In this document: positions 6,739 to 48,219 of the stretch, piece after piece
Layout: each line of letters starts with the position of its first letter
Numbering within the stretch: the stretch's first letter is position 1
Source: an uncultured Actinomycetota bacterium
GTDB lineage: Bacteria > Actinomycetota > Actinomycetes > Prado026
Direction of reading: 5' to 3'
Assembly: GCA_963849365.1 (NCBI GenBank)
Contig: CAWKHA010000004.1
Coordinates: 1,430,227-1,494,226 of the forward strand
Length of the DNA: 64,000 nt
Program-made: the position numbers and the translations under genes
Notes under the pieces: generated by a model
Databases searched by the model: none
Seen by the model: the letters and a program-made list of their open reading frames with translations, nothing else
What the model was told of the DNA's origin: nothing

Positions 6739-7128
6739 ATGAGTCCTGCGGCAGCGACGCGTGACTACTTCGGTGCGTGGGGCGTCGTCGGACTGCTCTT
6801 CGCCGTCGCCGTCGGCTTCGTGGTGGTGGCGTTCGCCGCGAACCGCCTTCTGCGGCCCGACCACCCAACCCGCGAGAAGCTGCTGACGTACGAGTGCGGC
6901 GTGGACCCGGTCGGGACCGGCTGGGCCCAGGTGCACGTCCGCTACTACCTCTACGCGTACCTGTACGTCGTGTTCGCCGTCGACGCGGTGTACCTGTTCC
7001 CGTGGGCCACCGTCTTCGCGGCGCCCGGCTTCGGCACCGTGACGCTCGTCGAGATGGGCGTCTTCGTCGGGTTCCTGGCCGTCGGCCTCCTGTACGCCTG
7101 GCGGCGGGGGGTGCTGCGATGGGTGTGA
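6739..7128 (+). CDS. nuoA: NADH-quinone oxidoreductase (complex I-like) subunit A
   Basis: 129 aa, 3 TM helices, YECG motif. Confidence 0.88.
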
Positions 7129-23686: not shown

Positions 23687-24718
23687 TCATCCTCGCTCCG
23701 CCGGGGCTGTCAGCCATGCCTCGATGCCCGCCAGCAGCGCCGCCCGGACGGGTCCTGGGGCGGAGCTGGCGCGTACGGCCATCGCGGCCAGCCCGGCCAG
23801 CGCGGTGTCGTCGAGGCCGAGCGCGTCCCGGGCGAGCACGTACTGGTCGGTGAGCCGGGAGCCGAACAGCAGCGGGTCGTCAGCGCCGAGCGCGACCGGG
23901 ACGCCGCCGTCCAGCAGCGCCCGCAGCGGAACCGCCCGCGCCTCTGCGTACAGCCCCAGCGCCAGGTTCGACGACGGGCACACTTCGCACGTCACCGAGC
24001 GGTCCGCCAGCAGGTCGACCACCCGCGGGTCCTCGGTGGCGCGGATCCCGTGCCCGACGCGACCGGCCCCCAGCACCTCGACGCACGCCCGGACGCTGTG
24101 CGGTCCCGACAGCTCGCCCCCGTGCGGCACGGCCGGCAGGTCCGCCCGGCGGGCGATCCGGAAGGCCGCCTCGAACTCCTCCGCCCGGCCCCGGCGCTCG
24201 TCGTTGGCCAGCCCGAACCCCACCACCCCGCGCCCGGCGTACTGCGCGGCCAGCCGGGCCAGCGTGCGCGCCTCCAACGGGTGCTTGGTCCGGTTGGCGC
24301 CGATCACGACCCCGATCCCCACCCCGCTGTGCGCCGCGGCGTCGGCGGCGGCGTCCAGCACGAGGTCGGTGAACGCCGTCACGCCGCCGAACAGCCCCGC
24401 GTAGCCGCTCGGGTCGACCTGGATCTCCAGCCAGCCGGACCCGTCCGCCCGCTCGTCCGCGGCGACCTCGTGCAGCAGGCGGCGCACGTCGTCCTCCCGA
24501 CGCAGCACCGACCGGGCCGCGTCGTAGAGCCGCTGGAAGCGGAACCAGCCGCGCTCGTCCGTCGCGCTCAGGTGCAGCGGATGGTCCGAGACGAGCGCGT
24601 CGGGCAGCCGTACGCCGTGCTCCGCGGCGAGCTCGAGCAGCGTCGCGCGCCGCATGGCCCCGGTGAAGTGCAGGTGCAGGTGGGTCTTGGGGAGCGCCCG
24701 CAGGTCGCGCCCGGTCAG
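23687..24718 (-). CDS. add: Adenosine deaminase; proposed CTG start overlapping the upstream stop (ORF track starts at ATG 24655)
   Basis: CPSSN, HGGE, DDPLLFG and SLTDQY motifs identify ADA. Homology clearly continues 5' of the first ATG (…[22 protein letters not shown]…), which includes the essential HxH metal ligands. No in-frame ATG/GTG/TTG exists between that point and the upstream in-frame stop; the only candidate is CTG (complement of 24716-24718). Confidence 0.6.
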
Positions 24719-25938
24719 GCCCGCGCCTCGGCCAGCAGGCGCTGGATGCGGCCGACACCCTCGACGAGGTCCGCGTCACCCAGGGCGTACGACAGCCGGA
24801 AGTAGCCCGGCGCCCCGAACGCCTCGCCGGGAACGACGGCGACCTCGACCTCGTCCAGGATCAGCGCGGCCAGCTCGGCCGACGTCTGCGGGCGCTTCCC
24901 GCGCAGCTCGCGTCCGAGCGCCGCCTTCACCGAGGGGAAGCAGTAGAAGGCGCCGTCCGGCGTGGGGCAGGCGAAGCCTTCGACCTCGTTGAGCATCCGC
25001 ACCATGGTCTGCCGGCGCACGTCGAACGCGGCCCGCATCACGGCAACGGCGGACAGGTCGCCGGACACGGCGGCCAGCGCGGCGATCTGGGACACGTTCG
25101 CCACGTTCGAGGTGGAGTGCGACTGGAGGTTCGCGGCCGCGGCGACGACGTCTGGCGGGCCGATCATCCAGCCGACCCGCCAGCCCGTCATCGCGTAGGT
25201 CTTCGCCACCCCGTTCACGACGACGCAGCGGTCGGCCAGGTCGGGGACCAGGCTCGGCATCGACGCGAAGCGGGCCTGTCCGTAGACCAGGTGCTCGTAG
25301 ATCTCGTCGGTGATCACCCAGAGCCCGCGCGCCGCGGCCCATCGACCGATGGCCTCGACCGCCTCGGGCGGGTAGACCGCTCCCGTGGGGTTGGACGGGG
25401 AGACGAACACCAGCAGCTTGGTGGCCGGGGTGACGGCGCGCTCCAGCTGCTCGACCGACGTCAGGTAGCCCGTCGTCTCGTCGGTGGGCACCTCGACCGG
25501 GACGCCGCCGGCCAGCCGGATCGACTCGGGGTACGTGGTCCAGTACGGAGTGGGCAGGAGCACTTCGTCGCCCGGGTCGAGCAGGGCGGCGAAGGCGTTG
25601 TAGAGCGCCTGCTTGCCGCCGTTGGTGATCAGTACCTGCGCCGGGTCGACGGCGTACCCGCTGTCCCGGAGGGTCTTGGCGGCGACGGCGGCCTTGAGCT
25701 CGGGCAGGCCGCCGGCGGGGGTGTAGCGGTGCCAGCGCGGGTCGCGGCAAGCGGCCGCCGCAGCCTCGACGATCGGGTCCGGGGTCGGGAAGTCCGGCTC
25801 GCCGGCGCCGAAGACGACCACGGGGCGGCCGGCCGCCTTCAGCGCCTTGGCCCTGGCGTCGACGGCCAGCGTCGCGGACTCGGCGATGCCGCCGACCCGC
25901 GCCGAGACGCGCCGGCGCTGCCCCGCCGCGTCGCTCAC
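24715..25938 (-). CDS. Aspartate/aromatic aminotransferase (class I PLP)
   Basis: ...[45 protein letters not shown]... and ...[17 protein letters not shown]... The ORF-track version runs through tRNA-Trp and is too long. Start set to GTG (complement of 25936-25938, [14 protein letters not shown]...). An alternative GTG lies at 25983. Confidence 0.8.
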
Positions 25939-26150
25939 ACTGGGACCGGGTACGGCTGCGGTGGGCGCTGTCACGGGCCCATCCTCGCATCGCTCGCGCG
26001 GGACCGGCCACGGGTTCCGGGGCTGCGACGGCGGTTCGACCGGTGGTCGGGCAGGCCGTACACTCGACCCCCGGTGGCCTCGGCCCCCTTGCGTAAGCGT
26101 GCCCGGTGCCAGCACGGGTGGGCCCGGCTCGGGGTCGTCCGGCGCCGAGT

Positions 26151-26223
26151 AGGGCCGTAGCTCAATTGGTAGAGTCCCGGTCTCCAAAACCGGTGGTTGG
26201 GGGTTCGAGTCCCTCCGGCCCTG
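26151..26223 (+). tRNA. tRNA-Trp (anticodon CCA)
   Basis: Acceptor agggccg/cggccct, anticodon loop cuCCAaa. Canonical position immediately upstream of secE. Confidence 0.85.
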
Positions 26224-26317
26224 CGACGTGCTCGACGCTGCTGGACGCGCTGCGTGCGTCGTGCGGAAAGACCCCGACCCGGAGACGCCGGGCGGCCGAC
26301 CGGGACAGGTGAGGCGA

Positions 26318-26590
26318 GTGAGCGACACACGCGGCTCGACCGCGACGCCCGAGCGCGGCCGCTCAGGTCCCGACGGCCAGGGCGAGCGCCGGGGGCTGTT
26401 CGCCAGGCTGGGGCTCTTCTACCGCCAGGTGGTCGCCGAGCTCCGCAAGGTGATCTGGCCCACCCGGCGCGAGCTGACCACCTACACCATCGTGGTCCTG
26501 TTCTTCGTCGCCTTCCTCACCGCGTTCGTGGCCGTGCTCGACGCGGTCTTCGGCCGTGGCGTCCTGATCATCTTCGGGGGCTCCGGCTGA
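26318..26590 (+). CDS. secE: Preprotein translocase subunit SecE
   Basis: GTG 26318 preceded by AGGTGAGG. C-terminal TM helix ...[21 protein letters not shown]... Sits before nusG. Confidence 0.85.
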
Positions 26591-46985: not shown

Positions 46986-47794
46986 TGGGCCAGAAGGTCA
47001 ACCCGCACGGGTTCCGCCTGGGCATCACCACCGACTTCAAGAGCCGGTGGTACGCCGACAAGCTCTACAAGGACTACGTCAAGGAAGACGTCGCCATCCG
47101 CAAGATGATGACCAAGGGCATGGAGCGGGCCGGCATCTCGCGCGTCGAGATCGAGCGCACCCGCGACCGCGTCCGCGTGGACATCCACACCGCCCGGCCG
47201 GGCATCGTCATCGGCCGCCGTGGCGCGGAGGCCGACCGCATCCGTGGCGACCTGGAGAAGCTGACCGGCAAGCAGGTGCAGCTCAACATCCTCGAGGTCA
47301 AGAACCCCGAGACGGACGCGCAGCTCGTCGCGCAGGGCGTGGCCGAACAGCTCGCCAGCCGGGTCTCCTTCCGCCGGGCGATGCGCAAGTCCATGCAGTC
47401 GGCCATGAAGGCGGGCGCCAAGGGCATCCGCGTGCAGTGCTCGGGCCGCCTGGGCGGGGCCGAGATGAGCCGCTCGGAGTTCTACCGCGAGGGTCGCGTC
47501 CCGCTGCACACGCTCCGGGCGAACATCGACTACGGGTTCTTCGAGGCCCGGACGACGTTCGGCCGGATCGGCGTGAAGGTGTGGATCTACAAGGGGGACG
47601 TGATCGGCGGCAAGGCTGAGCGCGAAGTCCAGCTCCCCGGCCGCGGTGCCCCGCGCAGCAGCGCGCGCCCGGCCGGCCGCGCCCCGCGCCGCCCTGCCGG
47701 CCGCGAGGCGGGCGTCCCGAGCGCCGCCGTGGCCGGCGACGAGCCCGTCGCCGAGGTCGCCGTGGCGCCGGCCGAGCCCGGAACGGAGGCCTGA
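46985..47794 (+). CDS. rpsC: 30S ribosomal protein S3, with an Ala/Pro/Arg-rich C-terminal tail
   Basis: GTG sharing 1 nt with the rplV stop. KH and S3-C domains. Confidence 0.95.
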
Positions 47795-47799
47795 CCCCG

Positions 47800-48219
47800 A
47801 TGCTCATCCCGCGGCGGGTCAAGCACCGCAAGCAGCACCACCCGAACCGCTCCGGAGCGGCCAAGGGCGGCACCCGCGTGACCTTCGGCGAGTACGGCCT
47901 CATGGCCCTCGAGTCGGCGTACGTCACCAACCGGCAGATCGAGGCCGCCCGTATCGCCATGACCCGGCACATCAAGCGTGGCGGGAAGGTCTGGATCAAC
48001 ATCTACCCGGACCGACCGATCACGAAGAAGCCGGCCGAGACCCGCATGGGCTCCGGCAAGGGCTCGCCCGAGTGGTGGGTGGCCAACATCAAGCCCGGAC
48101 GGGTCATGTTCGAGCTGTCGTACCCGAGCGAGAAGACCGCGCGCGAGGCGCTGCTGCGCGCCGCGCACAAGCTCCCGATGAAGTGCCGGATCGTCCGGCG
48201 CGAGGCAGGTGAGATCTGA
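47800..48219 (+). CDS. rplP: 50S ribosomal protein L16
   Basis: [15 protein letters not shown]... Confidence 0.96.

Follow-up and report, generated by a model that had tools for sequence, protein, structure and literature searches.

A near-cognate CTG in a stop/start overlap as the probable start codon of an adenosine deaminase gene in uncultured Actinomycetota

Translation in bacteria can begin at near-cognate codons: infC and pcnB of Escherichia coli start at AUU, and plasmid RepA starts at CTG. In Deinococcus, a CTG start of rpsL and an ATC start of dnaA were confirmed by mass spectrometry (PMC2830850). Equally established are 4-nucleotide (nt) overlaps between the stop codon of one gene and the start codon of the next, at which termination is followed by reinitiation (PMC6728339, PMC10666635, PMC12548453), and in caliciviruses termination-reinitiation tolerates substitutions of the restart codon (reviewed in PMC5972666). 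Here we analyze a stretch of 64,000 nt (the window) from contig CAWKHA010000004.1 of an uncultured Actinomycetota bacterium (GCA_963849365.1), in which an adenosine deaminase (ADA) gene on the minus strand lacks a canonical start codon (ATG, GTG, or TTG) ahead of an indispensable part of its N terminus. Comparison with related loci suggests that its translation probably starts at the CTG at 24718-24716, which overlaps the stop codon of an upstream aspartate aminotransferase (AAT) gene. Our literature search turned up no report of bacterial restart junctions of the CUGA or AUAA type.

Direct reading of the minus strand showed that the ADA frame is open from an in-frame TGA at 24778-24776 to the stop codon TGA at 23689-23687 and that no canonical start codon occurs in it before the ATG at 24655-24653, which lies 41 codons downstream of the first TGA. 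A 13-residue segment carrying the HxH motif, the histidines of which are metal ligands in the adenosine deaminase family, is encoded in frame at 24694-24656, immediately 5' of this ATG. The initial annotation of the stretch had reported both the absence of ATG, GTG, and TTG between the upstream TGA and this segment and the overlap of the CTG with the AAT stop, and our reading agrees: the stop codon TGA (24717-24715) and the CTG share the tetranucleotide CTGA at 24718-24715, read as GCC-TGA in the AAT frame and CTG-ACC in the ADA frame, with stop and start on one strand and no intervening signals. The CTG is not the only near-cognate codon available, as had been stated, since a second in-frame CTG lies at 24703-24701, with the conserved Arg-Asp codons CGC GAC (24709-24704) between the two. 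Translation from the first CTG would yield a coding sequence of 343 codons (23687-24718, minus strand) that is recognized by both PF00962 and NF006849.

To place the CTG in an evolutionary context, we compared the window with its relatives. Clade DNA was recovered one by one through exact-protein look-ups, except for L091, which came from a metagenome scan with mostly distant relatives among the matches listed. The clade comprises 11 distinct sequences (the window, L081/L173, L082/L083, L084, L165, L166/L167, L168, L169/L170, L171, L172, and L091) from independent ENA, JGI, Logan, and NCBI assemblies, with 75 to 88% protein identity to the window. All 11 encode the HxH motif in frame without an ATG, GTG, or TTG upstream of it, and all 11 carry a CTG 7 to 9 codons ahead of the Leu of the LPK tripeptide that opens the 13-residue segment. 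No near-cognate codon other than this 5'-most CTG is shared throughout the clade: at codon 0 (the Leu of LPK), the window, L081, L082, and L165 have CTC, and the second CTG (codon -3) is likewise not shared by all, as described below. Of the other 10 distinct sequences, 8 likewise show the CTGA overlap, and the remaining two, L084 (37-nt spacer) and L171 (9-nt spacer), retain the CTG without the overlap.

The missing start codon could reflect an error of sequencing or assembly, or a pseudogene of recent origin. A single G-to-C change would yield the pattern, and metagenome-assembled genomes do carry errors, such as the split of the L081 AAT gene into two open reading frames (ORFs), probably an assembly frameshift. 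However, 11 distinct sequences, obtained by different projects on different sequencing platforms, have the same CTG and no canonical start. This refutes sequencing error, one branch of the alternative offered in the initial annotation. The ORFs are intact, and pairwise ratios of non-synonymous to synonymous substitution (dN/dS) across the clade are 0.13 to 0.36 at a dS of approximately 0.5 to 0.8, so that the pseudogene was rejected as well, and we assign this explanation a negligible probability. Judged by these substitution patterns, the gene has long been functional without a canonical start and is not a pseudogene. Purifying selection of this strength indicates that the protein is functional, its activity as a deaminase being a prediction.

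The same comparison locates the 5' boundary of the translated region. The 13 codons from LPK to the Gly-Ala preceding the internal ATG differ between clade members at up to 6 synonymous but only 0 to 2 non-synonymous sites, and the H-L-H-L-H codons (24682-24668), which include the HxH motif and correspond to strand beta-1, differ almost exclusively synonymously; such purifying selection implies that the segment upstream of the ATG is translated. In L171, the AAT stop is in frame with ADA, 12 codons ahead of LPK, which confines the start to GGC GGC GGG CTG ACC GCG CGC GAC CTG CGG GCG. Where the overlap architecture is present, stop-to-LPK distances are 20, 23, 26, 35, 38, and 41 nt, all 2 modulo 3, and this spread reflects true codon insertions and deletions in the deaminase N-terminal tail. 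Upstream of the CTG, on the other hand, the length changes in L171 and L084 (13 and 28 nt) are not multiples of 3. Codon and frame are conserved from the CTG onward, although this conservation is partly imposed by the overlapping AAT codons. Taken together, these comparative data show a reading-frame constraint that sets in at the CTG at 24718-24716.

Two other readings of the junction bear on these data. If translation began at the second in-frame CTG, at 24703-24701, the overlap with the AAT stop would be coincidental; this codon is also near-cognate and retains the HxH motif, its product scores 530 bits against NF006849, almost as high as that from the first CTG, and CTGA junctions do arise by chance. 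Nonetheless, L168 has CTC in place of the second CTG, as do L155 and L159 outside the clade, and L166 has GTC. Moreover, the Asp codon GAC between the two CTGs is invariant in 11 of 11 sequences, and at the Arg codon most of them show synonymous variation (CGC/CGG), a pattern implying that translation begins upstream of both codons; insertions and deletions between the two CTGs are all in frame. We therefore consider a start at the second CTG unlikely. The second reading, a frameshift or readthrough at the AAT stop that would produce an aminotransferase-deaminase fusion without a separate start, draws on the abutment of the two frames and on the in-frame AAT stop of L171. Yet the frame relation varies, with offsets of -1 (window), 0 (L171), and +1 (L084), CGG GCC TGA contains no X XXY YYZ slippery heptamer, and no stimulatory RNA structure is evident there. 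Given the three offsets and the missing heptamer, a programmed -1 frameshift was rejected, and recoding as a whole appears highly improbable.

The protein encoded from the CTG fits its family over the full length. Against Pfam PF00962 it scored 311.5 bits (E value, 8e-93) and covered profile positions 1 to 329 of 330, with position 1 aligned at residue 10. Against NF006849, an NCBIfam equivalog model, it scored 535.2 bits (cutoff, 494), which places it within the family. The H-L-H at 24682-24674 aligns with the H-R-H of solved adenosine deaminases. The solved bacterial enzymes begin 4 to 10 residues ahead of the equivalent HxH, and residue 8 of the query aligns with residue 5 of 6n9m; hence, the N-terminal length fits the solved structures.

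The ATG at 24655-24653, in turn, would give a 322-residue product (P0001) that lacks the HxH strand, that is, a degenerate or noncatalytic homologue. It is the first canonical start codon and the choice of automated ORF callers, and 12 of the best 120 database relatives start at this methionine. However, the product falls below the NF006849 cutoff (492.4 versus 494 bits), beginning at profile position 25 with positions 1 to 24 missing; no Shine-Dalgarno (SD) sequence precedes the ATG; and the 13 codons upstream of it are under strong purifying selection. The methionine itself is retained by nearly every orthologue, even where a canonical start lies upstream. A start at the internal ATG is thus very improbable. 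We also examined whether orthologues truly begin there, since this would have undermined the initial annotation. Database entries starting at the internal Met exist, but for every such relative with retrieved DNA, the HxH segment is encoded in frame just upstream, which marks these starts as gene-caller truncations and leaves the claim standing.

We then evaluated the signals that could recruit ribosomes to the CTG. An SD-like GAGG at 24729-24726, within the 3' end of the AAT gene and 7 nt 5' of the CTG, pairs with the anti-SD sequence at -5.9 kcal/mol, approximately in the top 20% of background positions, and stands at a spacing typical of a ribosome-binding site. All members of the clade carry such a motif, with energies upstream of the CTG ranging from -4.0 to -7.6 kcal/mol across the 11 sequences. 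By comparison, the background median is -3.2 kcal/mol, most rival codons are near -2, and ahead of the second CTG (-2.8) and of the internal ATG the values are approximately -2 to -3. Among orthologues in general, the median was approximately -5.9 kcal/mol for near-cognate starts versus -3.0 for ATG or GTG starts (canonical orthologues from L001 to L164), values that are uncorrected for phylogeny; the stronger motifs may represent compensation.

Based on these features, we propose that the initiator tRNA would read the CTG at 24718-24716 as methionine, presumably formylmethionine, to yield a 343-residue enzyme with its HxH ligands. Ribosomes would probably be recruited through the GAGG in the last AAT codons, and in the window those terminating on the overlapping TGA would probably also be used, by termination-reinitiation at the CTGA junction. 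The geometry makes coupling to AAT translation plausible. Compared with ATG or GTG, the CTG would be expected to give low expression of the deaminase, provided that the junction context does not assist. This suggests deliberate expression of the enzyme at a level amounting to a small fraction of that of the upstream neighbor. The proposal of a CTG-initiated gene in the initial annotation is supported by conservation of the codon, in-frame insertions and deletions, purifying selection, the SD-like motif, and an NCBI annotation in a sister genome.

Several observations weigh against this interpretation or limit it. The CTG is partly forced by the last AAT codon (GAC or GCC) followed by the TGA stop, and it is free of AAT constraint only in L084 and L171, which are mutual sisters. 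In L084, the CTG is kept despite a 37-nt spacer, so that the overlap is not required and coupling may be dispensable. The two CTGs are barely separated by NF006849 (535 versus 530 bits), and the RNA fold of the junction is no better than that of shuffled sequence (z = +0.34). In Mycobacterium smegmatis, CTG was nearly unselected as a leadered start (0.03% of reads; PMC4633059), and no CUG start is annotated among the 515 NUGA overlaps of Mycobacterium tuberculosis (bioRxiv 10.1101/2022.06.01.494293); on these grounds, low deaminase expression from the CTG is probable. In addition, the members of the clade are all uncultured, and the case for the CTG is built on comparing their sequences. With these points taken into account, we still judge initiation at the CTG at 24718-24716 to be probable.

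To determine whether the CTGA overlap is informative in itself, we considered its background frequency. AAT genes most often end in NNC-TGA, and this holds even where >100 nt separate them from ADA, as in Streptomyces and Kitasatospora, whose deaminase has an ATG start at that distance from AAT. CTGA after a gene end is also common in the genome of the window: the rpsC-rplP junction (47785-47802, plus strand) contains the same 8-mer, GCCTGACC, and rplP starts there at an ordinary ATG at 47800. CTGA as a significant motif per se was rejected, its frequency being at chance level. Absence of a canonical start, unlike the overlap, is above chance at ADA. Under a strict test on the same stretches, such a start was missing from 12 of 159 ADA loci, compared with 1 of 91 AAT and 0 of 66 MurB loci. 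The comparison drawn in the initial annotation with GTGA and ATGA couplings elsewhere in the window also holds, as at least 14 such 4-nt stop/start junctions occur between putative coding frames of high GC3. Their stops lie at 7126, 7686, 8351, 9307, 9849, 10924, 12777, 14276, 21617, 44298, 45047, and 55029 on the plus strand and at 2500 and 1024 on the minus strand. Tight gene packing is the norm in the window.

We next extended the survey to the whole orthogroup, sampled as 173 fetched loci encoding 166 distinct proteins. Of these proteins, 23 had no canonical start within 30 codons of LPK, and such losses occurred in several lineages. In L111, L127, L140, and L164, an ATA overlaps the AAT stop TAA as ATAA, with the same geometry as in the window, at approximately 24 nt ahead of the LPK codon (L111 1500-1503, for example). 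Compared to canonical relatives of only 5% divergence (L093), this lineage lacks approximately 19 nt, a deletion that took out both the spacer and the ATG; its SD-like energy at the ATA is -9.5 kcal/mol (L111 lineage), and dN/dS within the group is 0.14 to 0.23. L062 and L163 have ATC at codon -7 from LPK, where their sisters have ATG, and L155 and L159 carry further CTGA overlaps in a lineage separate from the window clade. In L109, the ATG of its sister has become ACG, and a CTGA overlap lies two codons upstream (codons -14 and -12). A change of TTG to TCG at codon -9 was also seen in L094, a single short contig of uncertain quality. Within the near-cognate groups outside the clade, dN/dS was 0.14 to 0.29, the same as in canonical relatives. 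Of the 14 distinct junctions with an AAT stop no more than 26 nt from LPK, 12 lack a canonical start. The replacement codons CTG, ATA, and ATC are all among the four best near-cognate initiators of E. coli, where CUG, AUA, AUC, and AUU follow AUG, GUG, and UUG (bioRxiv 10.1101/063800).

These patterns bear on how the CTG arose. A GTG-to-CTG substitution, which the initial annotation had named beside sequencing error, is probably not the origin. A GTGA ancestor is unsupported, a true 4-nt overlap being present in only three canonical orthologues: L018 (TTGA), L080, and L104 (GTGA). Instead, CTGA is the ancestral AAT end, and the likely event is a joint loss of the spacer and the former start codon, a course that the ATAA lineage displays directly. 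The most economical account of the orthogroup as a whole would be that spacer loss repeatedly placed an existing C-TGA or A-TAA in the deaminase frame and that the near-cognate codon was co-opted. A tentative extension, to which we give somewhat less than even weight, is that in compact Actinomycetota junctions the terminating ribosome restarts largely regardless of the identity of the overlapping codon, with CUGA and AUAA serving as restart sites. If restart were indifferent to the codon in this way, the AAT-ADA junction would amount to a naturally replicated experiment, in which loss of the spacer goes along with loss of the canonical start (the 12 of 14 junctions above) and yet purifying selection was kept in at least four independent lineages.

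Public annotation of the gene is largely truncated. Almost all of the nearest relatives in the database have short gene models (316 to 329 amino acids [aa], with 91 to 94% query coverage) that begin at the Met after HLHFTGA, and the truncated ATG model is carried by the window's own genome and by most sister records. An exception is MFI5099093.1 (338 aa), from an Actinomycetes bacterium metagenome-assembled genome (GCA_044447145.1), which is 88% identical and is annotated as a CTG-start coding sequence translated with Met. Its start CTG is at L173 1229-1231, and the AAT stop overlaps it at 1230-1232. It is the same gene with the same CTGA junction as in the window, the NCBI start being an automated homology-guided call. 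In one ENA contig of 1474 nt, a 409-aa protein (P0003) contains an internal duplication of approximately 90 N-terminal deaminase residues, which could be an assembly artifact or a tandem duplication. Prodigal-type callers cut 21 residues, including the catalytic histidines, from the deaminase, and function prediction and structure modeling inherit a broken protein.

The upstream neighbor is a class I/II (AspC-like) aminotransferase gene (24715-25974, minus strand; PF00155 E value, 1e-75) of 419 aa with a likely GTG start at 25974-25972. This GTG is preceded by GAGGA, and the resulting length equals that of the L082 orthologue. A longer ORF called mechanically (537 aa, 24715-26328, minus strand) crosses a tRNA-Trp gene on the plus strand (26151-26224); the real start is probably the GTG rather than that of the 537-aa ORF. 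In L081 (3465-5327) and L173 (2254-3745), from the closest sister genomes, a gene of approximately 620 aa with no Pfam match lies between the deaminase gene and murB; it is absent from the window.

In practice, these observations matter mainly for annotation, and they also make it possible to test how strictly start codons are selected where genes are tightly packed. For a CTG start to be kept throughout a deep clade is unusual, since initiation at CTG was very poor in the only actinomycete in which it has been assayed. Together with the independent adoption of ATA and ATC in the same orthogroup, it allows a comparative approach to how far start-codon stringency is relaxed at stop/start overlaps of high-GC bacteria. 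Calicivirus termination-reinitiation is a precedent, in that a ribosome held at a stop/start overlap can restart with Met at near-cognate codons; it differs in being eukaryotic and viral and in needing an upstream element that binds 18S rRNA, and the likeness is one of mechanism, not of homology. Compared to bacterial NUGA overlaps, the ADA junction has an identical N-TGA geometry, co-oriented genes, and an SD-like motif inside the upstream coding sequence. In the overlaps studied or annotated so far, however, N is A, G, or rarely T, whereas ADA has C, or ATAA in another lineage. As in the infC, pcnB, RepA, and Deinococcus cases, a conserved essential N terminus precedes the first canonical start, the near-cognate codon is kept in relatives, and a low intrinsic initiation efficiency is expected. 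Unlike those cases, the ADA codon sits in a 4-nt stop overlap, its N terminus is read from the DNA, and its orthogroup has repeatedly and independently lost the canonical start to CTG, ATA, or ATC. Altogether, the ADA case would combine two known things, a near-cognate start and a 4-nt termination-reinitiation overlap; the automated call in one public record is already in agreement, and the pattern of recurrent loss is the more interesting lead.

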